Program-made: the position numbers and the translations under genes
The notes under the pieces: generated by a model
Database searches by the model: none
What the model saw: the letters and a program-made list of their open reading frames with translations, nothing else
Told to the model about the DNA's origin: nothing
Shown: in pieces, positions 1 through 24,973 of the stretch
Layout: every line of letters begins with the position of its first letter
How positions within the stretch are numbered: position 1 is the first letter of the stretch
Assembly: GCA_963798915.1 (NCBI GenBank)
Contig: CAWCVB010000007.1
Span: forward strand, 1 to 64,000
DNA: 64,000 bases
Direction: 5' to 3'
Source: an uncultured Gemmatimonadales bacterium
Lineage (GTDB): Bacteria; Gemmatimonadota; Gemmatimonadetes; Gemmatimonadales; GWC2-71-9

Positions 1-164
1 AAGGCGGCCGACACAGGACTATCCTAAACCTTCGCCTGGCGCATCCGCTAGCCGAGGCACGCGGCCGAACGGCAAGCCCCGCGATTAGCTCTGGCCTGCC
101 GCGCGTCTGGACTGGCGGCCAGCATGGGCCACACCGACAGCCCCTCCAGCGCTCCAACCCCTAA

Positions 165-2368
165 TTAGGCCGCAACACGGACTGCAATCTGACGGAAGAC
201 CTGTGCGCCTTCGTTCTCGACCTCGCGGCGCACAGGCCAGTTGCCACTGTCATCGATAACTTCAATCACTGCTGCAAATGACTGTTTGTGTTCAGCCGGT
301 AACTCCCTGGTCCAGAGACGCATGCGCAATTCCCATGTGCCTGCCCGAAAGTTGCGGTGAAAGAGTCTATCCAGCTGCTCAACCGGGCTCCACTTGTCGA
401 CTTGGACGCTTGCATCAGATACGCCGACTTCTGCGTGTCCCAGCTCGCTGGGTTTGCGTAGGCCTAGAGTAACGCGCGCCTTGGAGTACTCAAGGTGATT
501 ATCGGGTGATACCGGAGGGTCGAGAGCAACGGTAACACGTACACGCAAATGTTGGCCCCGCCGTGGCGCTAGGCATGGCGGCACAAGAAAGGGGAGATAG
601 GTGAATCGAGCGGTGGTAAGCTGCCCAACATGCAAGTACGTTGCCGCATGCTCCTTGGACCACATTGCAGCTTCGATATCCGGCTCGCCAAGTCCAATCA
701 GGTGCTCGGGTGGAACCGCGATATCGGGGGCGGTGACAGGCACCGCAAAGTGAAGCAGTAGTGCGCGAACGAGGTTCGCGTGTGGGTTTTTGTAGTGCTC
801 GATCAACCGGGCGCTCATGGCAGCCACGAGCGGCGCTGCGAACTCGTGCCGTGTCGCAAGCCCATGCTTCCTTATCATCTATCAGTCCATGAACGCCTAT
901 ACGAGCGGATGTCTTGGTGTCACGAAAGAGGTTGCCCCCATGCGCAACAAGGTCGGGCTTTATTCCGCCAAGGGGGCCTGGACCACGCCTCGAGAAGGCT
1001 GAGAGCTCACCCGCGGTGCTAATGGCGTTCGTGTCTGTAAAGCGAGCGTAGGACCCAACCGTTAATGCCAATAGTGCGTCGCCCGGGGAGTCGATCCGGC
1101 ACTCAGCATGCTCAAGCGCCTTTGGGTAGCCAAGGACCAGCTTCTCATCGCGGATATTTCCAGCGGTTGTGACGATGACGAGATTGCGATCGCGTGTATG
1201 CTTGTCGAGAAGCTGCGCGACAATAGAGACGACTCCATCGACAGTCGGCTTCGCATTACCGAGCGACATGTTCACCACGCGCGCGTTCGTCGGCAATTGC
1301 GGAATTACTGCGTCAACAGCCGCAGCCAGGTGACCTTCGTTGATGTATACGGGCTTCTTGTTCCAATCAACGCCAATTACAGGCACGTCAATTAGTGGAC
1401 AGAGCGGGCTTAGTCTGCCGCCGCGAAGCCCCGCCTCTAAGTCATCTCCGTAGACTATCCGACTGCCTACGAACGTACCGTGCATATATGCCGGTGCGAT
1501 CGCTCCAGGAGCAGAAAAGGAATTGTCTGCAAAACGCAGCCCTGTAGACCACGACAAGCAGGGCTCACGCCGGTATCAAATAGGACGACGGGAGCACTAA
1601 TCCGTGGCGCGTCGGCTGCGACTTCTGGGGAAAAGGCACTAATGCGCCATTGATCGGGAACGAAGAAGACGTGATTCGGAACGACTTGTCGGAGAGTCGT
1701 AAATGCTGCGCCAGCCAGTCTAGCCTCTGATGGTTTGATGCTGGCCTCAACTGCTGCTACTCCATTGGAGAAGCGGCGCATTTCTCCCCAAGGTTCCGCC
1801 TGTGCGCCCAATGAAGGAGCGCAAGGAGAACAAGATCGCTGCGCGCTCCTTTTCTGTGAGCGTGGAGTAAAGCAAGAGCAGGCACTCTGTGGGTTCCTCA
1901 GGCGCTCCCGCCAGCTCGGGTGATATCTTCTCCTCGACCGGGACCGGCGAACAGATCTTCGATAATCGCCATGTACGACTTACCGACGTTATCTGCCGAT
2001 GTTGCATAGTGCTCTATTTTCGCTCGGAGATCTCCAAGACGCGCCTTAGGCAGTTGGACCGTCGCAGCGTTTGGGTCGACAGCTGAGAGTTCGACAATCT
2101 CAAAGCCCGCGCTACGTAGGCGTTGACGTTCGGCGCGAACAGGTAACTCCCTTGGCGTTCGGATCTGCAGAAACAAAGACTCTGCTGCCTCGCCGTCCAC
2201 AGCGGTCGCCTGATTCGCCGCCGCTGCTGCTGTTCGCTCACGCAGGAGAAGATCGCCGTGCGCCGAGTAATTCGGCCGGGTATAGCGCTTAGACATTCCC
2301 CGAACTTTGATTGGTGCGGATCGCACAAGAGATTGAGGGATCTCGAAATGAGAGAACAACTTGGGCAT
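165..2368 (-). CDS. S8 subtilisin-like serine protease, IetS/Y4bN type; several frameshifts (sequencing error or pseudogene)
   Basis: Joining ORFs 1898-2368, 1747-2007, 1467-1811, 499-1557 and 165-878 gives VVLFDTGV (Asp), HGTFVGS (His), VVNMSLG, TAGN, SAFSRRGPG..IKPDLVAHGGN, and GTSFAAP (Ser) recoverable across indels near 845. Confidence 0.85.
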
Positions 2369-2465
2369 GTCATCCCTTTCGAACCAGTCTGTTGCGGCCT
2401 ACCAAAGCAAAGGCGGAATTGCGGGCCGGTGGCGGCGGCCCCGACTTCTGCGATCGGGTTAAGCC

Positions 2466-2834
2466 TTACTTCTGTGCTTTGTAAAGTTCGAGCGCACGCA
2501 AAACGCTGAGTGCCTCACTGAGCTTCGCCAAGCTCTTGGATGCCCTGCTGGACTCCTTCGCATACGCTTCGGCGTTGGCCTTTATGTCGCGCAAGGCGTC
2601 CCTGAGTTCGACAAGTTCATCGATGAAGTCTTCAGGTACCTCTGCTGACAGCCATTCGTGGCTGCACGTCTCGCAGACTAGGCCTCTGCGAAACCACTGT
2701 ATGTCGGAGTGGTCATCGGAGTACCGGCGCTGGCCAGATGTCGCGCCGAGTTGGGAGGGATTCACCGCAGCGCAGACTTCAATGGCTTGGCAGTTGGGGC
2801 ACCATTTCTGGGTTCCTCCCTGCGTGACCTTCAT
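2466..2834 (-). CDS. Small Zn-ribbon plus coiled-coil protein, function unknown
   Basis: CPNC...RRGLVCETCSHEWLSAE resembles an NrdR-type ribbon; helical C-terminus; GGGAG RBS before ATG 2834. Confidence 0.7.
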   Translation of the reverse strand: MKVTQGGTQKWCPNCQAIEVCAAVNPSQLGATSGQRRYSDDHSDIQWFRRGLVCETCSHEWLSAEVPEDFIDELVELRDALRDIKANAEAYAKESSRASKSLAKLSEALSVLRALELYKAQK

Positions 2835-2932
2835 TTTGTAGCTCCCACTGTTCAACTGAGTGATCGTGCGGCGGCCACAGCCTGATCGTCGCTACCAACG
2901 GAGGCGGTCGCTCGGCCATCTGCCAGCGTTAG

Positions 2933-3711
2933 TCAGGCCCCCGACGGCAAGGCGAAACGCTGTTCATACGTAGCCATGAGGAAGGTCGCAATCGTCCCGG
3001 CGAGATTGATGGCCAAGTCCGCATGGCGGGCGCTCGGCTTGTAAGCCTTTGGGCCCTTCCCGTGGGCATCACCGAATGTGTTACGCATGGCGGCAAGCCC
3101 GTTAGCGACGGACATGCACCCCGCCGAGGATCTGCTTGAACACTTCGTCCTTGTGGCCCTGCGGCCCGAGATTCATCGCACCAGCAACCAGGCCATAAAG
3201 CTTCGGCAGGTCGTCCTTGTCGGAGTAATTCTTTCCAAGCTTATGCAGCAGCTCCTTGCACGTGCTCTCGAGTAGAGTCCGGGCGAGGGTGATGGCTCCT
3301 TCAGGGTCCGCCTCTCGACGCGCTTGAGTCCGCGACCGTGCCTCACCGATCGACGCGGCAGTGCCCCTCTCAATGAAGGGCTCGAGCGAAAGGGCCGTCG
3401 GCTGGGTTGCACCGCGCTCTACAAAGTCAAAGAGGGGCCTAAGCTCTGACCAGATGAACTGACGACGACCGGCGTACGTGCCGTCACGAGCCTTCATGAA
3501 TTGCCAGAACTGGCTTCCCGACCGGTTGGAGGCCCACCCACCTCGGCATCAGGGGCAGGAGCTCGTGCTGAGACAGGATTTCCTCTCGTGCCTTTTCCCA
3601 GTCTTCAAAACCGGCGCTTCCACCGGTGGCGAAATCGACGGTGCATTCCTGAAAAGCGGTGAGGACTCGGAGTAGGATTTCCCTTCTTGATCCCTGATGT
3701 CTCACAAGCAT
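2933..3711 (-). CDS. Abortive infection family protein (Abi_C domain), two frameshifts
   Basis: ORFs 3484-3711, 3102-3497, 2933-3115: DPEGAITLARTLLESTCK, DDLPKLY, FKQILGG, RNTFGDAHGKG, ARHADLAINLAGT. Confidence 0.85.
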
Positions 3712-3867
3712 ATCAAGCCTCGGGCGATCTAACGCTACCTATGCCGCGCTTCCACAATATTTCGTATTGCGCGTATCGGAAATGCTCGGGCAGTGGTTCT
3801 ATGAGCAGCCCAGCGCTGAATTCCGTTCTCTGTCGACTCTTGGCCAGGCCCCGTCAGCCAGCTGCGC

Positions 3868-4140
3868 TCACCTCTCCATCACCCCCAGATACCTCCGCCA
3901 CGGCCCCACCGCTTCCCTATACTGTTTCGCCATCACCCGGCTGATCTGGCCCAGGTGCGCGAGGTCATGCGCCACCCAGGTGGCCAGGAGCTGCCGGAGC
4001 GTCACCGGCCCGAACTCGGGATGCTCGCCCTCGAGCCTAGGTCATCATCGGTCAGCGCCCACTCCTCGAGCGTCGCGAGTTCTCGGCGCGGCGCCAAGCA
4101 AACTCGCAAGCAGCTCGGGGAGCAGCGTGCCCTGGCTCTC
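3868..4140 (-). pseudogene. DinB-family protein, C-terminal fragment
   Basis: Minus-strand manual translation gives LEGEHPEFGPVTLRQLLATWVAHDLAHLGQISRVMAKQYREAVGPWRRYLGVMER*; no recognisable N-terminal half. Confidence 0.7.
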
Positions 4141-4401
4141 CCGGGCGCGACTGAGAGTCGCTCCTCGGCAGGTGTCGCCTGCGGCGACTCGCGGGATGCT
4201 GTGTTGCCGGTAAACCATTATGCACCCGCAGGTTCCCGGAGCGATACTGGGATTTTCCCAAATCCGACCAGCACACTCGCAATTCCCACTCCCGGCCCCG
4301 GCGTTTCTGCCGTGGCCAGCGCGCCTGATTCAGGCCATCAAGGCAGCCGGTAACTGCCGCGAAGTCATGGGGTTACCGTGCCGCGATGCCGGCTTGTCGG
4401 C

Positions 4402-5020
4402 TCATCGTTGCCTGACGAGTTCGAGTGCAGCGCCAATGCGGCGCCAATCTTCCAGCTGCGCCGCCTCCGGGCGGTGAGTATTCAGGATCCGCTTCCCGCA
4501 GTGATAGACAGCGAACAGCCGAGCACCATTTGGCAGGGATGCACCGCGGGGTGAAGCGACCGCCTGCCTGAACACGGGGATCGGCAGGGCAAAGGCGGTG
4601 AGCACGGCCTCGAAGGCGCGCTGGCCCAGGCCCACCACCACGGCGGGGTTCACCAGCTCGATCTGGGGACGGAGGAAGGCGCGCCCGCCTTGGTCAGGAA
4701 TACACGCCCATGGGGATCAGGGTGCTCCACCGATCCAATCGACATGCCGATGGACAGGAGCAGCTTCGCCAGCATGAGGTTGGTCGGATTGCCGGCTTTG
4801 TCGAGCCCACGGTTGTCACGGAAATAGCGCACGTCGCCCCAGTCCTGGCCCACGACCATCAGATCGGCATCGAGATCACCCTGCCACTGGGTCCACGGCC
4901 CAATCTGCGGCGAATCGCACTGGCCACCATCTACCATTGCTGGGTTCGTCAGCCCGCACTGGGTGCACAGACGGCAGGCCTGTCGCGCGGAGACCATGCT
5001 GGCATAGGCGTTCGTCTTCA
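4402..5020 (-). CDS. Uracil-DNA glycosylase superfamily protein, frameshift near 4685
   Basis: N-terminal CRLCTQC, LMVVGQDWGD motif, PAVVVGLG and AVYHCG across ORFs 4650-4997 and 4402-4653; start uncertain. Confidence 0.75.
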
Positions 5021-5051
5021 GGTGAAATTCCTCCGGAGTAAGCGCTCGAGC

Positions 5052-5080
5052 CGAGTGTTTTCGTGCTTTCGTGTTTTCGT
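5052..5080. repeat. TTTCGTG (ACGAAA-type) short repeat cluster; also at ~9619-9633, ~11080-11094, ~11913-11936
   Basis: gtgttttcgtgctttcgtgttttcgt. Confidence 0.65.
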
Positions 5081-5176
5081 CTGCGCTCCCGCGAAGGCCT
5101 CGCCATCCGCTGACGACGCTGCGCAGTGCCTGCGGACAGGTCAGCTAAACTGCTATGCCGGCAATGGTTTACTGCA

Positions 5177-5276
5177 CTACTAATCTATTGTCAACCACGG
5201 TGGGAATTAGTAGCATTGACAGATGGGTTGCGCGGCTTGAATATTTATACTACTAAATTTGTTGACATTAGTAGTA
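5177..5276 (+). promoter_or_regulatory. Paired inverted-repeat operator upstream of Fic
   Basis: CTACTAAT(5177)..ATTAGTAG(5206); TACTACTAA(5248)..TTAGTAGTA(5268) enclosing TTGACA at 5262. Confidence 0.6.
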
Positions 5277-5296
5277 CATCAGCAACGAGCGTGACG

Positions 5297-6701
5297 ATGA
5301 AACTCCCCATGGCCCCGCCCCCCTTCGAGCAATTGGTCGAATCCGTCTTTCTCCCAGGACAAACGCCGTTGATCGATACGTGAAGCTCCTCAGCGCGGCG
5401 ACGACCCGGCCCCAGGTGGGCAATACCGTCATTGGCACAAGCTTCGATACCTCGCCCCACCCGATGACCTGACCACCGATGAGTGGTGGCTGGGCATCAA
5501 GACGGCTCGGCGCGCCCTGTACCGCGAATTGCCGTTGGAGGATCGCGAACACCGTCCCTTCAGGTACGCCCTGGTCGATCCCGGCCTCAGCATGCTGCAT
5601 GAAGTGGACAAGCAGGCAAGCGGAGCCATCCAGGGATCAGATCAGGTGACGGATCCTCAAACACGCGATACCTACCTCATCAAGAGCCTGGTCGAGGAAT
5701 CGATCACGTCGAGCCAGCTGGAAGGAGCGTCAACGACGCGCGAAGTCGCCAAAGACATGTTGCAGCGTGGGCGGCCGCCACGGGACCGCAGCGAGCAGAT
5801 GATCTACAACAACTACCAGGCGATGCGTTCCATCGGTGGGTTGAAGCAGGCGCCCCTGACGCCCGACCTGGTGTTCGAGCTGCACAGAATCCTGACGCAG
5901 GACACGCTGGATGACCCGACGGCCGCGGGCCGCTTTCGGCGCACGGACGAGAATATCTGCGTCGTCGATGAAATCGGGAACACGCTGCATGTGCCACCCG
6001 CAGCGGATGAGCTGCCCGAACGCCTCCGGAGACTCTGCGGCTTCGCCAACGATCACGGCGGGAAACCGTTCATGCATCCCGTCGTCCGGGCCATCCTGCT
6101 GCATTTCTGGCTCGCCTATGACCACCCGTTCGTCGATGGCAACGGTCGAACGGCGCGCGCACTGTTCTACTGGAGCATGGCGCGAGAAGACTACTGGCTG
6201 TGCGAATACATCTCAATTTCACGCGTGCTGCGCAAGGCGCCGGGCAAGTACAGCAGAGCCTACTTGTACACCGAGACCGACGACAACGACGTTACCTATT
6301 TCATCCTTCATCAGCTTGGTGTCGTGATAGAGGCGATCCGCGAGCTGCATACGTACCTGGCACGGAAAACACTGGAGTTGACGAAGACTCGGCAGCTCAT
6401 TCAGGGCTCCCGGTTCCTGAACACGATCCTCAACCATCGCCAACTCGCGCTGATCAATCATGCGCTGAAGAACCCGCACTTTGTGTACACCATTGACTCG
6501 CATCGCCGGTCGCATGGGGTGAGTTACCAGACGGCCAGAACCGATCTGCTGCAGCTCGCTGAGATGCGGCTGGTCGACCAGGGAAAGGCCGGCAAGGCCT
6601 ACGTCTTCTCGGCACCCCCGGACTTGCGTCAGCGAGTGGGTAACCTGCCAGGTGACAACGGTGCTGGCACCCGCCGGGCAGGAGCGAAGCAAGAGCCATG
6701 A
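5297..6701 (+). CDS. Fic family protein with C-terminal HTH; 5' frameshift(s)
   Basis: HPFVDGNGRTAR Fic motif, EESITSSQLEG, C-terminal VSYQTARTDL helix; probable start ATG 5297 (MKLPMAPP) in another frame. Confidence 0.9.
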
Positions 6702-6721
6702 TGCAGCAGCCGACGCCTGGC

Positions 6722-7458
6722 CTATGGCAAGAGACTCGACCGCAACAACCGGAGCGTGCCCGGCCCCCACGTCCCATTTTTCGCTCGCCCCCCTGCCAAC
6801 GAGCTGACAATCCCGCATAGTGGGCAGTGGGCCGCAGCTCGGACCAAAGCAGGCGGACGTGAAGCGAGGCCGAACCCAGCAGTCTACCAAGCTCTTTCAG
6901 GTCTTCCTTGTACTTTGTGGCTGCCTCTTCAGTGGTGCTGAATACGTGGTAAACGAGCCATCCGTTTGCGACGTCGGGCTGGCACGCTGACGCGGCGCGG
7001 TGAATGAGTTGATATGGAAGCCCTGCAATTTTCTCACGAGAGAGGGGGGCTTCCGCCACCCTGTTCAGCAAGCCGAGCCACCCATCGAGCACCTCCGGCC
7101 GATTGCCTTCGGTCTTACTGCCCAGCCAGGATTTGACGTTCTGGTACCTCGGTTCGGTTGACTTGGCCTCCACGGCCACCGATGTAGTTCCGGACAGGAT
7201 CATGAGATCGGTGCAGGACGGCTTTCCCTCTCCCCGTTGAACTGGATACCTCATACTCGAAATGCAGCTCCGTGGTGTCCCCCAACGAGATCCCCAGCGC
7301 CGAGGCGAATCCGGGTAGCCGAGCGTCCGGATGCCTCCAGTAGGAGAGCGGGCTACCGTGGATCGAAGCGGCGAGTCGAATTCTGCAGCTCCATACTTCT
7401 CGAGAAGGTCGCTGAAGGAGGCGACCGGGGTGCCGGACCGGAACAGCGCCGTACGCAT
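6722..7458 (-). CDS. PD-(D/E)XK nuclease-like protein (DUF6946-like), frameshifts
   Basis: GEGKPSCTDLMIL..VAVEAKSTEP and LPYQLIHRAASA; 3' end approximate. Confidence 0.65.
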
Positions 7459-7485
7459 GAAAGCTCCCGTATTCAGGCCAGCTGT

Positions 7486-8199
7486 TTATCCGGAAGCATG
7501 GGACGAGGCTCGAATCTGTCCCGCCCAGCGGTCATGAATTACGTCATGCGTACGATCAAACGCGGCGGCATGCTCGGGGCGGGCCGCGAGAAAGAACACG
7601 ACATGCGACGTTCGGAACGAATCGACCAGTGGTGCCTTAAGCCGGCTCGCCAGCTGGGCACCCATTCTGGCTATGAATCCATCCCGTCTCTCACGGATGA
7701 AATGCTGGTAAATGACCAGGGAGTGACCGCGGCCATATGCCTGCGTGATTTCATCCCAATACAGAAACTTGGAAGATCCCTTGTTACCCAGCCGCGTACT
7801 CGGAACTTCGATACCGTTATCCGGATCGAAAAAGATGACTGGGCACTCGGTAAGCACCTTCCAGGCACGGTCGAAGTAAGCGCGTCGAGAGCGGGCATCG
7901 TCGTGAAGGAGCTCGTCATGAAATGTCGCGCCAGGCAACAGTGTCCATGCGCGTGCTAGCTGCACTGACCGAACTGAACGGGGCTCAACCAAGAGTCGCA
8001 AACGATCATAGAGTTCCGGGTCATAGTGCCGCCATCGCTCGGGCTGGTCAAGATAGCGGCGGAACTCACCATCCGAGCGCCCGTCTGGCGTGGTCAGGAG
8101 CCAGCAGATACCGACAGGGAACTGCGTGACAGTGGCCAGTGCGCGCAGGAGCCCGTACTTGCGGTAATCATTCACGTCGCCGAAGTACTGGTCTTTCAT
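7486..8199 (-). CDS. Conserved hypothetical protein, possibly SAM-dependent methyltransferase-like
   Basis: Intact 237 aa ORF; MKDQYFGDVNDYRKYGLLR, FFDPDNG, LVIYQH. Confidence 0.7.
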   Translation of the reverse strand: MKDQYFGDVNDYRKYGLLRALATVTQFPVGICWLLTTPDGRSDGEFRRYLDQPERWRHYDPELYDRLRLLVEPRSVRSVQLARAWTLLPGATFHDELLHDDARSRRAYFDRAWKVLTECPVIFFDPDNGIEVPSTRLGNKGSSKFLYWDEITQAYGRGHSLVIYQHFIRERRDGFIARMGAQLASRLKAPLVDSFRTSHVVFFLAARPEHAAAFDRTHDVIHDRWAGQIRASSHASG

Positions 8200-8226
8200 G
8201 GAAGTCCCTCACGCCACCTCATGCGT

Positions 8227-8457
8227 TCAACCCTTCTCCTCCCACACCTCGCCCTCCTCATCCCACCGCGCCTCGCAGGCTCGGCAGAACCAGATCGGAT
8301 CATGGAGGCCGATGACACAGCCACCCAGCACGATCTCGCCCCGCATCGAGGCTTCCCCCATCTCCGGGCCAGGAAGACCGTACATGATCGGCACCACGTC
8401 CGCCGATTGGCAGCGGGGACACTTGGCCGAGATGGGTGTCCGGTCGGGCAGTCGCAT
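8227..8457 (-). CDS. Small CxxC/CxxC metal-binding protein
   Basis: CPRCQSADVVPIMYGLP..GEIVLGGCVI..WFCRAC. Confidence 0.7.
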   Translation of the reverse strand: MRLPDRTPISAKCPRCQSADVVPIMYGLPGPEMGEASMRGEIVLGGCVIGLHDPIWFCRACEARWDEEGEVWEEKG

Positions 8458-8506
8458 GGCGCACTCCGGTAGGTAGAACCGTGAACGATACCGGGCGGGT
8501 GTGACA

Positions 8507-8581
8507 GCTCGGCGGCTCGGCGGCTCGGCGGCTCGGCGGCTCGGCGGCTCGGCGGCTCGGCGGCTCGGCGGCTCGGCGGCT
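8507..8581. repeat. Octamer tandem repeat (GGCGGCTC), about 9 copies
   Basis: 8 perfect copies at 8511-8574 plus partial flanking copies. Confidence 0.95.
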
Positions 8582-8592
8582 TCCGTGACCCT

Positions 8593-8662
8593 CGACCCAC
8601 GACCGACGACCCACGACCCGCGACCCACGACCCACGACCCGCGACCCGCGACCCTCGACCCT
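8593..8662. repeat. Heptamer tandem repeat CGACCNN, 10 copies
   Basis: CGACCCA/CGACCCG/CGACCCT/CGACCGA units directly downstream of higA. Confidence 0.95.
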
Positions 8663-8665
8663 CCG

Positions 8666-9055
8666 CTAGCCGACCAGCCCATCGAGTGGAACCCCGAGCA
8701 GCTCGCGCAGGTGCTTGGCCTGGGTGAGCGACAGGCGGCGCTTGCCGCTGAAGAACTCCGAGACCCGGCTCTTGCCACCCATCACGGCACTGAGGTCCGC
8801 TCGCGCAAGCCCCTTCTGCTCCAGGGCGAACGCGACCACCTGCTGGGGCGTGACATCCGCCGTCTCGATCGGATCATGCTCGGCCTCATACGCCTCAACC
8901 AGGACCGAGAGGAACACCATGCGGTCATAGTCATCGGTGTGCTCGGCAGGATTGGCGTAGGCGAGCCCATCGAGCGCCGCCACCGCGGCGTCATACTCAC
9001 GCTCGTCGCGGAGCACGTGGGGCCGGGAGAAGTCCAGAATCACTGCGGTCATCAT
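8666..9055 (-). CDS. higA: HigA-type XRE/HTH antitoxin
   Basis: EREYDAA, LVEAYEAEH, GGKSRVSEFFSGKRRLSL. Confidence 0.88.
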   Translation of the reverse strand: MMTAVILDFSRPHVLRDEREYDAAVAALDGLAYANPAEHTDDYDRMVFLSVLVEAYEAEHDPIETADVTPQQVVAFALEQKGLARADLSAVMGGKSRVSEFFSGKRRLSLTQAKHLRELLGVPLDGLVG

Positions 9056-9091
9056 TACCTCTGCCGTGGAGACGCCCTCTTCGTGGAGGTC

Positions 9092-9400
9092 TTACCGGCT
9101 CCGTTTGCCTCGCTGAGCCCTGGTCCACGCGTCGTATCCCCTGTGGTCGAACACCCCGAGAATCAGGACCCGCCCAACCGGGTACAGGATCCGCGCTACG
9201 ATCCGGTACTTGTTGCCTCCGATATCAAAAACCGCCAGACCGTCGCCCAGGAAATCCGTTTGCCCGAACAGCTCCTTCACCTGGTGAGGCGAGGCCAGGC
9301 GGCTGGCCCGCATCAGCCGAAGCCACACCTTGAGCGGCTCCTTCGCCTTCGGGTCCTTCTTCCAGAACTCCCTGAGCCGCCGTTCGGTGATCACATGCAT
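9092..9400 (-). CDS. higB: HigB mRNA interferase toxin
   Basis: MHVITERRLREFW, VFDIGGNKYRIV, HRGYD; toxin-first gene order. Confidence 0.92.
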   Translation of the reverse strand: MHVITERRLREFWKKDPKAKEPLKVWLRLMRASRLASPHQVKELFGQTDFLGDGLAVFDIGGNKYRIVARILYPVGRVLILGVFDHRGYDAWTRAQRGKRSR

Positions 9401-9423
9401 GGGTTGCCTGGGGCCAGAGAGCA

Positions 9424-9517
9424 GTTACCAATATGGGAACCCGACGGCAGACTGTCAAGCCGGCCTAAGTCCTTAACCTACGGATCGTTAGTGAAGTGGC
9501 GTTCCCATCATGGGAAC
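9424..9517 (-). promoter_or_regulatory. higBA promoter with two palindromic operators
   Basis: Minus-strand TTGACA(9458-9453)-17-CATATT(9435-9430); palindromes GTTACCAATATGGGAAC (9424-9440) and GTTCCCATCATGGGAAC (9501-9517). Confidence 0.7.
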
Positions 9518-9536
9518 TTGAGAACGCTCGCAGGGC

Positions 9537-10298
9537 CGACCCGCGACCGACGACCGACAGACCTCGAACCGCGACCCGCGACCCGCGCACGACCGACGAC
9601 CCGCGACCCGGCCGTCGCTTTCGTGTTTTCGTGAATCCCTCGGCGTTTCTCCGCGCCCTCCGCGCTGTTGGGCAACTGCTCAACGCAGAGTCGAGAGCCG
9701 CAGAGGGTTCCACGCACGACCGGCGTCCCGATCTCAGCGGCTGGGCCACAACATATTCATGTCGGTGGAGAGCATCGGAGCTCGATGCTGCTCGGCATCC
9801 TCTGCGGGCCCCCGCGCTGTTGGGCAACTGCTCAACGCAGAGTCGCAGAGCCGCAGAGGGTTCCACGCACGACCGGCGTCCCGATCTCAGCGGCTGGGCC
9901 ACAACATATTCATGTCGGTGGAGAGCATCGGAGCTCGATGCTGCTCGGCATCCTCTGCGGGCCCCCGCGCTGTTGGGCAACTGCTCAACGCAGAGTCGCA
10001 GAGCCGCAGAGGGTTCCACGCAGGACCGGCGTTCTGATCTCAGCTGCTGGGCCACAACATATTCATGTCGGTGGAGAGCATCGGAGCTCAATGTTGCTCG
10101 GCATCCTCTGCGGGCCTCCGCGTCTCCGCGCCTCTGCGTTGTGCAGTTTCGGTCACCAACATCCTGGCGATCATCGGCTGGCCAGCAGGTCTCAGTCGAG
10201 CTGCACGCCACCCGATTGCTTCGTCGGCTTCGCCTCCTCGCAATGACGCATGGGCGAGACTCGACCCGCGACCCGCGACCCCGACCCCGACCCGCGAC
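9537..10298. repeat. Composite repeat element, copy 1
   Basis: Heptamers, TTTCGTG, three 153-bp units (starting 9661, 9813, 9966), CTCTGCG cluster, CGTC-type palindrome GATTGCTTCGTCGGCTTCGCCTCCTCGCAATGACG (~10215-10249), heptamers (10262-10298). Confidence 0.92.
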
Positions 10299-10300
10299 CA

Positions 10301-10633
10301 TCACGCCAGGTCGAGGGCGATCGCGAGGGCCTCGTCCAGGCGCTTGAGCTTGGCCGGCTTGAGTGCGGCGACGAAGTGCGTCAGCTTCGCTTTCTCGATC
10401 AGGAAGAGCTGGTCGGCCTTGATGGCGCACGACCACTTGAGTCCGTCGTCCGCGTCAAGGAGGACTTCGGTAGAAAGGCCATCGGGCTCGCTGTGGATCG
10501 CCGCCACGACCACCTTGTTGAACTTCGACTGGCAGAGGGTCTCACGACTCACGATGACGCATGCCCGCCGACGCTTCGGGTCCGCTCGATCCGGTGGAGG
10601 TGAGAGCAGATAGATCTCGCCCCGGTGCATCAC
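10301..10633 (-). CDS. PemK/MazF family toxin
   Basis: HRGEIYL, KRRRACVIVSR, AIKADQLFLIEK, LDEALAIALDL. Confidence 0.88.
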   Translation of the reverse strand: MMHRGEIYLLSPPPDRADPKRRRACVIVSRETLCQSKFNKVVVAAIHSEPDGLSTEVLLDADDGLKWSCAIKADQLFLIEKAKLTHFVAALKPAKLKRLDEALAIALDLA

Positions 10634-10926
10634 GCGAACGGGTCGGCCTGATGCTCGAGCAGCTCGTCGGTCTGCCGATCAAGCTGCTCCGCCTTCGCGT
10701 TCAGAATTTCCAGGTCGTGTTCAGCGCGGGCCCGCCGGAGCCGCCGGAGCAGCTCACGCCGCACAGCAAGCTCGACGAACCTGGAGCGCTGCTGCGCCGG
10801 CACGATCAGGTTGACGCCTTCCATGACTTCGCCAGCCATGGTGACCGAGGCAGCTACCTTCTTCTGGCGATCCTTGAGCAACTTCTGCAGTTGCAAGGCC
10901 TTATGCCATGATATAGTAGTTTGCAT
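10630..10926 (-). CDS. Putative RHH-type antitoxin of the MazF-type toxin
   Basis: 4-nt overlap with the toxin; RSRFVELAVRREL and DLEILNAKAEQL. Confidence 0.75.
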   Translation of the reverse strand: MQTTISWHKALQLQKLLKDRQKKVAASVTMAGEVMEGVNLIVPAQQRSRFVELAVRRELLRRLRRARAEHDLEILNAKAEQLDRQTDELLEHQADPFA

Positions 10927-10962
10927 ACTCTATAATCTAGTATGTAATATCTTATATATCAA
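10924..10962 (-). promoter_or_regulatory. Sigma70-like promoter, probably leaderless, with operator palindrome
   Basis: TTGATA-17-TAGATT then 7 nt to ATG; CATACT..AGTATG inverted repeat. Confidence 0.6.
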
Positions 10963-10965
10963 GCT

Positions 10966-11435
10966 TCTCAGTCGAGCTGCACGCCACCCGATTGCTTCGT
11001 CGGCTTCGCCTCCTCGCAATGACGCATGGGCGAGACTCGACCCACGACCGCGACCCGCGACCCGCGACCCGGACGGCGCTTTCGTGTTTTCGTGAATCCC
11101 TCGGCGCTTCTCCGCGCCCTCCGCGCTGTTGGGCAACTGCTCAACGCAGAGTCGCAGAGCCGCAGAGGGTTCCGCGCACGACCGGCGTTCTGATCTCAGC
11201 TGCCGGGCCACAACATATTCATGTCGGTGGAGAGCATCGGAACTCAATGTTGCTCGGCATCCTCTGCGGGCCTCCGCGCCCTCTGCGCCTCTGCGTTGTG
11301 CAGTTTCGGTCACCAACATCTTGGCGATCATCGTCTGGCCAGCAGGTCTCGGGCGAGCTGCACGCCACCCGATTGCTTCGTCGGCGCCTCTGGGCGACGC
11401 AAGCGTCGCCCCTGCGGCGCCTCCTCGCAATGACG
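10966..11435. repeat. Composite repeat element, copy 2
   Basis: Palindrome, heptamers, TTTCGTG, one 153-bp unit, CTCTGCG cluster, variant palindrome; near-identical to 10190-10290 followed by 9600-9810 and 10115-10250. Confidence 0.92.
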
Positions 11436-11437
11436 CT

Positions 11438-11896
11438 TCAGGTCGTGCCCCAGCCTGGCAAGCGGCTGGCCTGCTTCACCCAACTCAGGAATTGCGCTTC
11501 GTCGAGCCCGCCATCCTCATGGATATCCAGGTAGCGCACCTCCTTGTGCTTCGATGCGCCGGGAGGAACCGGTCTGAGCGACCCGCCATTGAAGAACGTG
11601 ACCTTGACGTACCTGGTGAAGCAATGGAAGCTCACGAACCAGCCCTGGCCCTCGATGCCGTAAAACGGCGAGTTCCATTTGACCGCCTTGCGCACGCCCG
11701 GAACAGCGCGCTGAATCAGCGCATCCAGCCGGCACCCGACGTCGCGCTTCCAGCCCGGCATTGCGGCAATGTATTCCTGCACCGGGGCATCGCCCTCGGC
11801 CTTGGCAATCTGCGGATTGCCGCCCGCAAGCAGCACTGGCTTCGCACCGGCTCTGGTCGAGACCTTCGTCGACTTCCTGGTCAGCTTGCGGCCCAT
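11438..11896 (-). CDS. DUF1801 (YdhG-like) protein
   Basis: LLAGGNPQIAKAEGDAPVQEYIAAMPGWK, KAVKWNSPFYG. Confidence 0.85.
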   Translation of the reverse strand: MGRKLTRKSTKVSTRAGAKPVLLAGGNPQIAKAEGDAPVQEYIAAMPGWKRDVGCRLDALIQRAVPGVRKAVKWNSPFYGIEGQGWFVSFHCFTRYVKVTFFNGGSLRPVPPGASKHKEVRYLDIHEDGGLDEAQFLSWVKQASRLPGWGTT

Positions 11897-11939
11897 GGCA
11901 CTCCCTCCAGAACTTTCGTGTTTTGGTGTTTTCGTGACT

Positions 11940-12497
11940 TCACAGTGCCTTCCACATCCTTAGCAGCGGCACGGCGACCCCGCCCCGGTCGTCCAGGACG
12001 CGTTCAAGTTCCTCATACCCGGAGGCGCGGTACAACGGCTCCCCAGCCATTGTCGCCATCAATTCCGCCCGGGTGAACCCTTCGGCCCTCGCCGCCGCTT
12101 CGCAGAGCGCCAGGACCAGCCGGCCCACACCCTTCCGTACATGACGTGGATGGGTATACATCGCGCGAATCCGTGCCGGTTCCGTCGCAGGATCGAGCAG
12201 GCGATCGCTCCGCGCCGGCGAATGGTCGCCACCATACAGGGTGGCCCGCCGGCTCCAGCCGCCGCAGCCCGCCAGTTCGCCATCGGCATGAATCACAAAA
12301 TAGGTCCCGTCGTCAATGAGCTGGGTGTCCAGGCCCATGATCATCCGGCTCGACGCAATCTGGCGCGCATCAAGAAACGGCTTCTGCAGCTCAGCAATCG
12401 CCGCCACCACGAGCGCCCGCAACGCGTCGAGATCGGCTCGGCAGGCAAGTCGATGGGTCAGTGCTCTCGCGTCATGGGTCACAGGTCGTGGATTCAT
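11940..12497 (-). CDS. GNAT N-acetyltransferase
   Basis: AGCGGWSRRATLYGGD, ARIRAMYTHPRHVRKGVGR, GEPLYRASGY. Confidence 0.9.
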   Translation of the reverse strand: MNPRPVTHDARALTHRLACRADLDALRALVVAAIAELQKPFLDARQIASSRMIMGLDTQLIDDGTYFVIHADGELAGCGGWSRRATLYGGDHSPARSDRLLDPATEPARIRAMYTHPRHVRKGVGRLVLALCEAAARAEGFTRAELMATMAGEPLYRASGYEELERVLDDRGGVAVPLLRMWKAL

Positions 12498-12569
12498 CAG
12501 CCAGCGCTCCCGTAGAACATCCAAAGGCCCAGGCTGATCAAGCCGAGACTGACAATCACTCGGCAAATC

Positions 12570-12726
12570 CACCGCGGAGACGCAGAGGGCGCAGAGCTAC
12601 CTCTCATTCCGAACGAAGTGAGCAATCCTGACGGCCGAACTTCGGAACCGGGCGAGAAGATCCCTCGCTGCGCTCGGGATGACAACTTCACTCATTATTA
12701 CTCTGTGTCCTCTGCGGCTCTGCGGT
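12570..12726. repeat. Repeat cluster: CGCAGAG...CTCTGCG inverted repeats enclosing two CGTC-type palindromes
   Basis: accgcggagacgcagagggcgcagag; ctcattccgaacgaagtgagcaatc; agatccctcgctgcgctcgggatgac; ctctgtgtcctctgcggctctgcggt. Confidence 0.75.
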
Positions 12727-12852
12727 TGATTCCAATGGCCAGCGAACTTGGTCAGCGATACCACTCGTCCCCCACACCTTGACGCCCGCACCGCTGCCCG
12801 CCACCATCATGTGCGCTGTGCCCCTGACCCCTAACCCCCAGCCCCTACCATC

Positions 12853-14199
<1,347 letters not shown>

Positions 14200-14204
14200 G
14201 GGGG

Positions 14205-14275
14205 GCGAGACGGCGAGGCGGCGAGACGGCTAGTTGCTCGTCATCCTGAGGGAGTGCAGCGACCGAAGGATCTGC
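14205..14275. repeat. Octamer repeat (GGCGAGRC) plus CGTC-type palindrome
   Basis: ggcgagacggcgaggcggcgagac then cgtcatcctgagggagtgcagcgaccgaaggatct. Confidence 0.65.
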
Positions 14276-20365: not shown

Positions 20366-20632
20366 TCACGACCCTCGCCGATACACGTCCCGCCGATGCG
20401 CCACCCGCACCACCGTGACCACGAGCTCCTGATTCACGATCTCGTACAGCACCCGATAACGGCCCTGACGAATTCGAAACCGGTCTCCGCCCGCGAGTTT
20501 CTGGCAACCGGATGGGCGAGGGTCGTTGGCGAGAGACGCGATGCGCCCCACGAGCCGGCGCCGGTCCTCGAGCGGCACCGCTTCCAGTTCCTTCTGCGCG
20601 GAGCGCTTGATCCGGACGCTATAGCTCGCCAC
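20366..20632 (-). CDS. RelE/ParE family toxin
   Basis: YSVRIKRSAQKEL, DPRPSGCQKLAG, FRIRQGRYRVLYEI, VAHRRDVY. Confidence 0.92.
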   Translation of the reverse strand: MASYSVRIKRSAQKELEAVPLEDRRRLVGRIASLANDPRPSGCQKLAGGDRFRIRQGRYRVLYEIVNQELVVTVVRVAHRRDVYRRGS

Positions 20633-20849
20633 GACGCTTGAGGTCCTGCACGTAATCCTCGAACGCCTCGCTTGGCTCGGCCACGCGATTCCGGAATGCG
20701 GCCAGGTCGTCCGCGTCCTCTGCCAGACTCTCCCGGACAGCGTCGTTCACAAGATCGGAAATGCTCCGGTCCGTCTCCGCCGCCTTAAGACGAAGCGCCC
20801 GGTGCAGGGCCTCATCGAAGTAGATCGTTGCGCGCTTTGGGGTTGGCAT
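20619..20849 (-). CDS. CopG/RHH antitoxin
   Basis: KRATIYFDEALHRALRLKAAETDRSISDLVNDAV. Confidence 0.88.
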   Translation of the reverse strand: MPTPKRATIYFDEALHRALRLKAAETDRSISDLVNDAVRESLAEDADDLAAFRNRVAEPSEAFEDYVQDLKRRGEL

Positions 20850-20892
20850 GCAGTAAACATGACGTTGTAACGTCACAACGTCAAGACGTCAG
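20850..20892 (-). promoter_or_regulatory. Probable leaderless promoter overlapping repeated ACGTCA boxes
   Basis: TTGACG(20884-20879)-17-CATGTT then 6 nt to ATG; TGACGTT, AACGTCA, AACGTCA, GACGTCA boxes. Confidence 0.6.
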
Positions 20893-23797: not shown

Positions 23798-23827
23798 CGA
23801 ACGGGGCTCCAGTGAAGGTCAGTCAAG

Positions 23828-23897
23828 GTCAACGGTCGACGGTCGACGGTCAACGGTCGACGGTCGACGGTCGACGGTCGACGGTCGACGGTCGACG
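23828..23897 (+). repeat. Heptamer GTCRACG, 10 copies
   Basis: Direct reading; upstream of the four-helix-bundle gene. Confidence 0.95.
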
Positions 23898-23968
23898 CAG
23901 GAACTATGGTCGCCGAAGATGCGAGGATCCGGTACTGTGGCTCTCGCATTCATGTGCCACAGTAGGGC

Positions 23969-24328
23969 ATGGGAAACTACCGCGCGCTCGACGCCTGGCA
24001 GGCCAGTCGCACCTTGGCCGGGCTCACGTACCGGACGACGGAGCGGTTCCCGCCTGCCGAGCGCTACGGCCTCACGGCCCAGATGCGACGTGCCGCGGTC
24101 TCGATCATGTCCAATATCGCCGAGGGAGCCGGTCGGGGCAGCGACACCCAATTCCATCCCTTCCTGCAGATTGCTCGCGGCTCTCTCCATGAACTCGAAG
24201 CCCAGACCATCCTGGCGAGCGACCTGGCATTCGGCAGCGAGGCTTCACTCGCCGAGCTGACTGAGGCGACTCGCCAGACGGCCCGACTCCTGCACGGCCT
24301 CCTCCGTTCACTGAAGAACGCCCGCTAG
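23969..24328 (+). CDS. Four-helix-bundle protein (23S rRNA IVP / Avd-like)
   Basis: YRALDAWQ, FPPAERYGLTAQMRRAAVSIMSNIAEG, FLQIARGSLHEL. Confidence 0.93.
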   Translation: MGNYRALDAWQASRTLAGLTYRTTERFPPAERYGLTAQMRRAAVSIMSNIAEGAGRGSDTQFHPFLQIARGSLHELEAQTILASDLAFGSEASLAELTEATRQTARLLHGLLRSLKNAR

Positions 24329-24973
24329 CCGCCATCCATCGTCGACCGTTGACTGTCGACCGTCGACCTTTCTGAAAGCATCCGCTCCATCGCACCAATC
24401 TCTGCCGTCTGGACGGTGACGACATCGTTGGCGAACACGTTCACATCCACGTCCTGCGCGGCGCCAGGCGCGGCCAAGCAGATCCTTGACCATCTGCAGC
24501 GCGCCCTGGTGGTGCTGGATCATCATGGTGAGGAAGGCATGATCGAACGCCGAGCCAGTTGCAGCGTCGAGTTCCTCGAGCTGCGCCGAGGTCAGCATGC
24601 CGGGCATCATCATGGTGCGCCAGGACGAGGTATCCGGGGCCGCCTGGCCATTGCGCACCAGCCACTCCTGCATGATGTGGATCTCCGCCACCTGCGACTG
24701 GCCGATCTTGGTGGCGAGCCGCAGCAGCCGGGCGTCGGCATGGTGCGCCGCCGCCATCCGGGCCATGTGGATGGCCTGCGCATGGTGGGCGATCATGCCC
24801 TGCATGAACTCGACGTCGGGCACCGTATAGAGGGCACCCTTGGGAATGGTGATGTGGCTGTGGCCGGCCATGCCCGAATCGGAGTCCTGCGCCCATGCGG
24901 CGGCAGGCGGTGCGGTGAGCGAGGCCAGGATGGCGAGTGCAGCGACAGTCGCGGAAAGACGAGAGGAATTCAC
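24325..24973 (-). CDS. DUF305 ferritin-like secreted protein, frameshift near 24475
   Basis: DVEFMQGMIAHHAQA, FLTMMIQHHQGA; corrected frame ..QTAEIGAMERML reads through the heptamers to TAG at 24325. Confidence 0.85.
24340..24367 (-). repeat. Heptamer CGTYGAC, 4 copies, inverted relative to 23828-23897
   Basis: cgtcgac cgttgac tgtcgac cgtcgac. Confidence 0.9.

Follow-up and report, generated by a model that had tools for sequence, protein, structure and literature searches.

Two toxin-antitoxin operons amid intergenic spacer repeats in a Gemmatimonadales genome, and a probable entry of one of them by recombination between repeat copies

Genes and repeat modules of the spacer

The stretch of DNA analysed here (the window, C7:1-64000) is the first 64,000 nucleotides of a 207-kb contig, C7, in the metagenome-derived assembly of an uncultured soil-type Gemmatimonadales bacterium (3.31 Mb in 17 contigs, 66% G+C, 84.8% complete). 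Between a small zinc-ribbon gene (8227-8457, minus strand) and a DUF1801 gene (11438-11896, minus strand) it carries two toxin-antitoxin (TA) operons, higBA and a MazF-type pair that we call mazEF, set among tandem repeats and palindromes. The initial annotation took these repeats for a system that captures TA cargo in the manner of an integron. We consider it probable that the locus holds two ordinary TA operons amid generic spacer repeats, and that mazEF entered it through recombination across repeat copies. All gene counts below come from our own rough calls (3129 genes, 88% coverage).

Both operons lie on the minus strand. The toxin gene higB (9092-9400) matches PF09907 (HigB_toxin, E 4.6e-18) and solved HigB chains (E 1.8e-8), and the antitoxin gene higA (8666-9055) matches HTH_3 (E 2.7e-6). 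The toxin gene comes first and the antitoxin gene lies downstream, as in HigBA operons, and the pair is predicted to be a type II HigBA system in which a HigB-family toxin stands upstream of a helix-turn-helix antitoxin in one operon. The second toxin gene (10301-10633) matches PF02452 (PemK_toxin, E 1e-13) and solved MazF9 chains (E 5e-6), and overlaps by 4 nt the gene of a putative 98-aa antitoxin (10630-10926). This arrangement, a PemK/MazF-fold toxin behind an overlapping small antitoxin gene, is most simply read as that of a MazEF/PemIK pair. The claim of two TA cassettes holds by family for both higBA and the MazF-type pair, except for the MazF partner: it has no match in Pfam, NCBIfam or the solved chains, and could be assigned neither to MazE/PemI (AbrB-type) nor to another known antitoxin family. 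Searches found no second copy of either cassette.

Each operon is also preceded by sequence patterns of the kind expected for its own promoter and operator, as the initial annotation had proposed. For higBA these patterns (9424-9517, minus strand) comprise a promoter-like site TTGACA-17-CATATT at 9458-9430 (-) and two operator-like palindromic boxes of 17 nt, at 9424-9440 and 9501-9517; for mazEF they form an AT-rich stretch (10911-10962, minus strand) with a promoter-like site TTGATA-17-TAGATT at 10962-10934 (-) and an operator-like imperfect inverted repeat of 19 nt (10911-10929/10939-10957). The region holds 4 promoter-like sites where 0.4 would be expected. Family matches and these patterns together show the two as ordinary type II TA operons with predicted self-regulation.

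The order of repeats and genes in the initial annotation is correct, every module being found at its place by Tandem Repeats Finder (TRF) and self-comparison, and with TRF scores of 54-871 the repeat modules cannot be chance. From left to right, an octamer array of GCTCGGCG (8507-8581; 9.4 copies, 100% matches, score 150) lies between the start of the zinc-ribbon gene and higA, followed by a heptamer array, (CGACCCN)x10.7 at 8587-8661, that comes to within 4 nt of the higA stop and reads G-rich (GGGTCG) along the coding strand. Upstream of higBA a second heptamer array, (CGACCNN)x10 at 9537-9610, forms the left end of a composite element made of heptamers, a TTTCGTG doublet, a long hairpin, a tail and a palindrome. 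In this first copy the doublet and a linker (9611-9647) are 95.8% like 11074-11121; a 153-base unit is then repeated 3.1 times (9648-10122; TRF, 96% matches, score 871), a tail of 66 bases (10124-10189) completes the right arm of the long hairpin, as found by inverted-repeat and direct-repeat comparison, and the 71-base short form of the palindrome (10190-10260; self-comparison) closes the element. A heptamer array of 5.7 copies (10262-10299) follows and ends 1 nt from the mazF stop. On the other side of mazEF stand a second copy of the palindrome (10966-11036), identical to the first at 71 of 71 nt, and a heptamer array of 5 copies (11038-11071) that is at once the end of a duplicated block and the left end of the second composite element. 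This copy continues with the TTTCGTG doublet, a single 153-base unit (11118-11278) and the tail (together 11072-11346), and ends in a long form of the palindrome (11347-11436) that contains a nested hairpin, GGGCGACGCAAGCGTCGCCC (11392-11411), stops 2 nt from the DUF1801 stop codon and adjoins that gene. The TTTCGTG/CACGAAA family also makes arrays elsewhere in the genome.

Repeat families across the genome and its relatives

Arrays of short units are common in this genome. Using TRF (period 7-9, at least 3 copies, non-overlapping) we counted 695 arrays, and one or more lie in 336 of the 1580 intergenic gaps that measure 20 nt or longer. The CGACC[CGA]N family of the locus contributes 109 arrays; those that follow a stop codon are G-rich on the coding strand in 36 cases and C-rich in 13, and the arrays after higA and mazF are G-rich like the majority. 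The coding strand of arrays after stops reads GGGTCGN repeated, which is a quadruplex-type motif (motif only).

Similar repeats have been described in other bacteria, as intergenic heptamers in Xanthomonas (GGGAATC) and Nostoc/Anabaena (Rehm et al. 2015, PMC4692102) and as heptanucleotide elements in Geobacter metallireducens (PMC2700814). To the extent of the available text of these papers, the likeness is close: the arrays of our genome are likewise 7-base tandems, mostly intergenic, that lie shortly behind the upstream gene, carry GGG runs on one of the strands and number in dozens to hundreds per genome. They differ in that the unit families are many here and extend to 8- and 9-mers, with fast turnover at one orthologous site and frequent inverted pairs; a quadruplex would here be a prediction from the motif. 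We think it more likely that the arrays are spacers or insulators at transcript 3' ends, and less likely that they act as capture sites.

Nor are genes flanked by arrays unusual in size. Only 51 of the 3129 genes have arrays on both sides, and their median length is 294 aa, compared with 249 aa for genes with none, so small cargo genes are not what the arrays pick out. A conserved peptide-transporter gene (12853-14199) shows how arrays arise. Its orthologues in the genus (for which we compared 9 other genomes) are 87-88% identical, and in 6 of 6 species examined its stop codon is followed at once by an array, whose unit changes from one species to the next; arrays also precede the start wherever the contig extends that far. 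In the window these boundary arrays lie at 12821-12847 and 14204-14230 and have the unit GGCGAGAC, while in the relatives the units include inverted AGGGGTT/CCCTAAC pairs, GGCTGCT, GGGGCGT and others. Read in this way, the alignments show a vertically inherited transporter that would have gained and swapped arrays in place, with fast unit turnover. Since the transporter is flanked in all six species by differing units, arrays arise at gene boundaries without gene insertion; and since the gene is inherited vertically, being flanked by arrays is no sign of insertion.

The CGTC palindrome is a dispersed, intergenic hairpin of the repetitive extragenic palindromic (REP) kind. About 25 copies lie in intergenic gaps of this genome beside genes of 43-977 aa, often next to arrays of unrelated units, and the inner stems vary between copies with self-complementarity kept. 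It has matches in 9 of 9 other genomes of the genus. Among 151 genomes sampled from the phylum, 16 contain its core (GATTGCTTCG, 10-40 bases, CTCGCAATGA), the unpublished G120 being one of them, with up to 67 copies per genome and none for the reversed control; in relatives the palindrome is often found as inverted pairs a few bases apart. Four palindrome copies carry the nested 20-base hairpin GGGCGACGCAAGCGTCGCCC in their loop; allowing up to 3 mismatches, the genome has 13 occurrences of this hairpin, against 1 for the control. We know of no REP that carries cargo genes. In the available parts of the literature on REP, BIME and REPIN elements and their REP-associated tyrosine transposases (RAYTs; PMC3116915, PMC3337134), the shared features are a short, dispersed intergenic hairpin, a conserved outer stem, a variable inner stem and, in relatives, inverted pairs. 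A possible further likeness to the REP and RAYT systems of these papers is the presence of the nested hairpin to either side of a candidate Y1-transposase gene. The differences are the low copy number here, ~25, and the weak Y1 match of 25.7 bits, and transposition would here be conjectural.

The Y1-like gene in question encodes 181 aa (C2:114029-114574), its match to PF01797 is weak (25.7 bits), and a tandem repeat of ~25 bases lies upstream of it. The region (C2:113966-114969) is possibly a RAYT-REP pair. We saw no Y1 gene with the outer palindrome beside it.

The surroundings of the locus are poorly conserved. Neither the MazF gene nor the DNA of higBA was found in the 9 other genomes of the genus, which are different species in fragmented assemblies, and searches for the MazF protein in metagenome_contigs and genome_contigs gave pattern matches with no confirmed relative. 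The zinc-ribbon gene is kept in one relative (G004) with the same octamer unit GCTCGGCG and in another (G009) without it, but its neighbours differ on both sides in all three genomes and there is no counterpart near this locus; the neighbours of the transporter differ as well in the relatives, whose contigs are short. This part of the chromosome is thus variable and accessory in character. The genus genomes compared showed no empty-site allele, which is not evidence of absence. Beside the zinc-ribbon gene of the first relative (G004:C513:1480-1650) an octamer array is followed ~100 nt on by an inverted copy, with another widespread palindrome (GGATTCCCGCGTTCGCGGGAATGAC) in between.

Toxin loci, four-helix-bundle genes and integron cassettes

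Around TA genes as a class the arrays are not enriched. Family searches of the genome returned 3 PIN, 3 PemK, 3 ParE and 1 HigB loci, which with 1 BrnT locus met later makes 11. Arrays lie on both sides of two of these, higBA and the MazF-type pair, and on one side of a PIN locus; the other eight have none adjacent. No tandem repeat is present in the 3.2-kb locus of the closest HigB relative that we found, which is 85% identical and comes from another genus of the family (G060). Pairs of neighbouring arrays less than 4 kb apart with at least one gene between them number 224 in the genome: 16 are of the same family (up to 1 mismatch) and direct, 21 of the same family and inverted, and 187 unlike. 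The genes enclosed by same-family arrays are of all kinds. The window also holds a third TA pair, a ParE toxin with a ribbon-helix-helix-like partner (20366-20849), which has no adjoining array of at least 3 copies; an octamer run of 2.9 copies lies ~20 nt off (20869-20891).

These counts bear on the possibility that the repeats are a recurrent capture substrate, in which small cassettes with their own promoters are repeatedly taken up and lost through recombination between copies of the arrays and the palindrome, whose homology would suffice for it, with no dedicated recombinase. This is the proposal of the initial annotation minus its recombinase, and we regard it as unlikely. It would account for mazEF lying between direct repeats of ~105 nt and higBA between direct arrays of one family, for the excess of same-family pairs, direct and inverted, around genes (each about twice random), for two other loci at which composite spacers are duplicated around genes, and for the variability of the region among species of the genus. 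However, nine of the 11 toxin loci are not flanked on both sides, conserved genes too are adjoined by arrays whose units change in place, same-family arrays enclose genes of every kind, and neither an empty site nor a second cassette copy turned up. Moreover, the available text of the Xanthomonas study reports gaps that bear heptamers to be more conserved than control gaps (PMC4692102). As a system, the repeat-guided capture put forward in the initial annotation is not supported: apart from the 153-base unit every module is generic, only two of 11 toxin loci are flanked on both sides, and our attC model scores nothing at the locus; what survives of it is a local recombination footprint at mazEF. 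The repeats are largely what that proposal should not have met: they are spread over the genome and not enriched around TA genes, and the genomes compared showed no empty-site allele.

One class of genes does go with arrays. The genome encodes eight four-helix-bundle proteins (TIGR02436 / 23S rRNA IVS protein), and all eight genes lie between arrays of 7-, 8- or 9-base units (window 23827-24368; C3:116075-116584 and C3:181126-181653; C5:49059-49718, C5:74009-74637 and C5:98872-99477; C10:14707-15206 and C10:106494-107076); a search for four-helix genes within the same motifs had been suggested at the outset. In six of the eight the two arrays are of one family and inverted (up to 1 mismatch), and in the other two they are inverted with units closely related by hand comparison. 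The 9 other genomes of the genus supplied 27 such loci for comparison; arrays lie on two sides of 20 (16 of them inverted and same-family), on one side of 5 and on neither side of 2. The four-helix genes are the only strong association between genes and arrays here, and their arrays are inverted, unlike the direct arrays around both TA operons. The unit of the array after higA is also the arm unit of a four-helix cassette (C3:181178-181534). On a wider link between solo arrays and such arm units the count at one mismatch is not decisive: 315 of 679 solo arrays match a four-helix arm unit, compared with a shuffled mean of 149 (sd 57, max 315), and the 175 of 679 that match exactly are a figure without a shuffled control.

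The same contig offers a direct comparison with an integron. Beyond the window, at C7:112-120 kb, lies a series of small genes that share a strand, and between them stand imperfect palindromes of 59-143 nt with the ends ..CTAAC and GTTAG... Seventeen of these attC-like sites fit an R-box/L-box model with two bulged bases, in which 88% of cells are paired and 10 pairs are changed on both sides; the covariation score is 0.284, where shuffles give 0.099 and slid partners no more than 0.105. From the 17 sites we built a covariance model, which covers this genome's attC family only; at E <= 0.01 it detects 39 attC-like sites genome-wide with scores of 27-93 bits, 22 of them not used in building it. 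Of the 39, 26 lie on the plus strand of C7 at 73.8-119.05 kb (C7:73817-119047), and the others at C2:20361-20495, C2:506234-513133, C4:58778-62561 and C13:5582-11983. The array on C7 is closed by a truncated tyrosine-recombinase gene (C7:119578-119826), whose score to the integron-integrase model, 125 bits, falls short of the cut-off of 265. Its cassettes and the others of attC type include BrnT/BrnA and ParE/antitoxin pairs, and a PemK pair on C13 adjoins attC-like sites; no 7-9-mer array lies between C7:112044 and C7:122031.

At the higBA-mazEF locus the model finds no attC-like site. The best score in the window, 15.1 bits (E 0.16), falls outside the locus, and the 153-base units score 9.7 and 8.4 bits. 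Because the model scores nothing there, the locus is not part of the true attC TA cassettes of this genome. Nor is an integron integrase present beside it: PF00589 and TIGR02249 have no match in C7:1-64000, and the nearest such gene is the truncated one at C7:119578-119826. The absence of an integrase or transposase from the window, noted at the outset, holds for the 29 open reading frames (ORFs) scanned in 1-26 kb, among which none was found, and for PF00589, PF01797 and TIGR02249, which were without a match across all 64 kb. NCBIfam gave no match for the six proteins searched, and Rfam nothing relevant in 8000-12500 (a single match of 20 bits to a snoRNA model, E 0.17) or in two other repeat loci. 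Judged by the available text on sedentary chromosomal integrons (PMC13108822, PMC4889954), the locus resembles them in its small genes of one orientation, its TA pairs with promoters of their own and the repeated element after each unit, and differs from them in having no attC-type site and no integrase in its window. Within one genome, then, attC cassettes hold TA pairs without heptamer arrays, and the two pairs described here have arrays without attC.

The long hairpin and the duplicated block around mazEF

The 153-base unit is the sole module confined to this locus, where all four of its copies in the genome lie. It was not found in 40 relatives used for repeat searches, and an exact 33-base pattern taken from it had 0 matches in metagenome_contigs and 0 in genome_contigs. 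Each unit covers the long hairpin from its left arm through the loop into part of the right arm; the threefold tandem repeats these parts. One unit with its tail folds into an imperfect hairpin of ~170 nt (11135-11305) with z -4.5, none of 200 shuffles folding as well, and z -3.2 on the minus strand; it matches no Rfam family. We considered a miniature inverted-repeat transposable element, for which inverted ends are present, but the element is limited to the locus and no target-site duplication was seen. A reading of the hairpin ends GCTCAAC...GTTGTGC as attC R''/R' boxes was ruled out by the covariance-model score. A second low-copy hairpin element of ~140 nt with inverted ends (GCGACTAAAAGTCGC...) occurs at C2:5614-5776 and C2:8776-8939, in two copies 89% alike that follow GGGTCGA heptamers and bracket a flavin oxidoreductase gene and a LuxR-type regulator gene; it has no Rfam match, and comparison with the long hairpin gave no convincing homology.

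The scaffold around the two operons is shown by these comparisons to consist of boundary arrays, a dispersed REP-like palindrome, a locus-specific long hairpin and one local duplication. The arrays, of 7-9-base units, stand throughout this genus where genes begin or end, most often just behind stop codons, and are swapped rapidly. Insofar as the published descriptions available to us cover them, its parts belong to known kinds, namely HigBA, MazF-type pairs, heptamer spacer arrays of the Xanthomonas/Nostoc sort (PMC4692102) and REP-like hairpins.

The duplication is the direct repeat on both sides of the MazF pair that the initial annotation had pointed out, and it proved to be 98-111 nt long at 93-96% identity. 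A palindrome-plus-heptamer block of ~105 nt is 93% identical over 98 nt ungapped and ~96% over 107-111 nt gapped; specifically, 10190-10298 and 10966-11074 agree at 95.5% over 111 nt, and their first 71 nt are identical. If the two composite elements are called E1 and E2, the locus reads E1, heptamers, mazFE, palindrome, E2, where the heptamers after E1 and the palindrome before E2 are parts of copies of one block. E1 and E2 are 91-94% alike. Since the blocks agree at 71 of 71 nt, they are younger than the E copies. Removing mazEF and one block from the sequence in silico leaves E1 followed directly by E2, a clean tandem. At the neighbouring operon, higBA lies between two direct arrays of one family, and 9537-9610 is 82% like 8593-8643 over 51 nt.

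The mazEF footprint appears to fit a single insertion by homologous recombination. The spacer would formerly have held two tandem composite elements, and mazEF, with its own promoter, would have entered by host homologous recombination across the ~105-base block that now stands on both sides, either through integration of a molecule carrying mazEF and one block or through replacement of the middle of a third E copy. The neighbouring heptamer array may have received higBA likewise. We infer one or two recombination events, with generic repeats as the homology; no dedicated recombinase or recognition site would have taken part. The likeness to Campbell-type or duplication-insertion recombination is that the segment is bracketed by direct copies and that deleting it with one copy restores the presumed ancestral order. 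The difference from Campbell-type integration is that the homology would here be ~105 nt of generic spacer repeat, and the event itself is deduced from the arrangement. Duplicated composite spacers surround unrelated genes at two further loci, one holding a DUF6880 gene and a 93-aa ORF and the other the flavin oxidoreductase and LuxR-type regulator genes. At the first of these a composite of three arrays in the same order is duplicated (93% alike) at C5:1314-1445 and 3405-3535.

Two other accounts of the duplication need to be weighed. In one, the composite element is non-autonomous and mobile, or prone to being copied, and landed downstream of mazF and of DUF1801 with the TA genes as bystanders. 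The 91-94% identity of its two copies and a core of ~170 nt with inverted ends are compatible with this, as is the C2 hairpin with inverted ends, found twice around two genes (C2:5614-5776, 8776-8939), and three Y1-transposase-like genes in the genome could act in trans. Yet the 153-base unit is restricted to the locus and missing from the 40 relatives and, as the exact 33-base pattern, from two public collections; a single copy-and-paste event cannot yield the circularly permuted order around mazEF, no target-site duplication is seen, and the C2 element is not homologous. We therefore find this account quite improbable.

The other is that the mazEF duplication, the threefold 153-base tandem or both are artefacts of a metagenome assembly that mixed strains. 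The assembly is in 17 contigs and 84.8% complete, the repeats are short and similar, and the sole public run that we found gives a small share of the locus, as contigs of ~150 bases. Specifically, this run held 0.08 of the sampled words of the locus and yielded ten such contigs on 8000-12600, two of them exact inside higBA and none across a joint, and is uninformative on assembly and excision. Against an artefact, the copies differ by many substitutions (91-96% identity), where copies from a collapsed or looped path would be identical; full identity extends over no more than 71 nt, and the contig is 207 kb long. An assembly artefact is very unlikely on these grounds.

Insertion of mazEF among generic spacer repeats is thus the reading that we favour, and several observations weigh against it. 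The two operons are alone among the 11 toxin loci in being flanked on two sides, and their four flanking arrays all belong to one family and point the same way. Among gene-enclosing pairs 7% (16/224) are same-family and direct, where 3.7% would be random (4.2% for inverted pairs), an approximately two-fold excess. Because of the two-sided flanking and this excess, gene gain may to some extent be tied to the arrays locally. As for the arrays as insulators or quadruplexes, that role would be carried over from the Xanthomonas parallel, as far as its available text goes (PMC4692102). The insertion history follows from sequence logic, with an empty site in no relative examined, and the order itself presumably holds to the extent that a metagenome-assembled genome (84.8% complete, 17 contigs) is correctly joined.

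Taken further, the spacer repeats might serve as a landing pad at which small self-promoted cassettes are gained and lost by host homologous recombination without a recombinase, with the mazEF duplication as an example caught in the act. We give this a small chance. If true, the landing pad would be a second, attC-independent route of cassette turnover alongside the true integron array. Should the insertion of mazEF by recombination be confirmed, generic spacer repeats could seed gene gain without a dedicated enzyme. A caution for similar analyses is that in repeat-filled genomes any small operon appears to be bracketed by a scaffold.

The first part of the window differs in composition from the rest of the genome. 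From the contig start to position 8200 (window 1-8200) the G+C content is 56-61%, against 66% for the genome, and the genes there include an Abi_C fragment, those of a Fic-domain protein and a DUF6946 protein, and an ORF of 237 aa that belongs to no family. The stretch has the look of an island of accessory or defence type.

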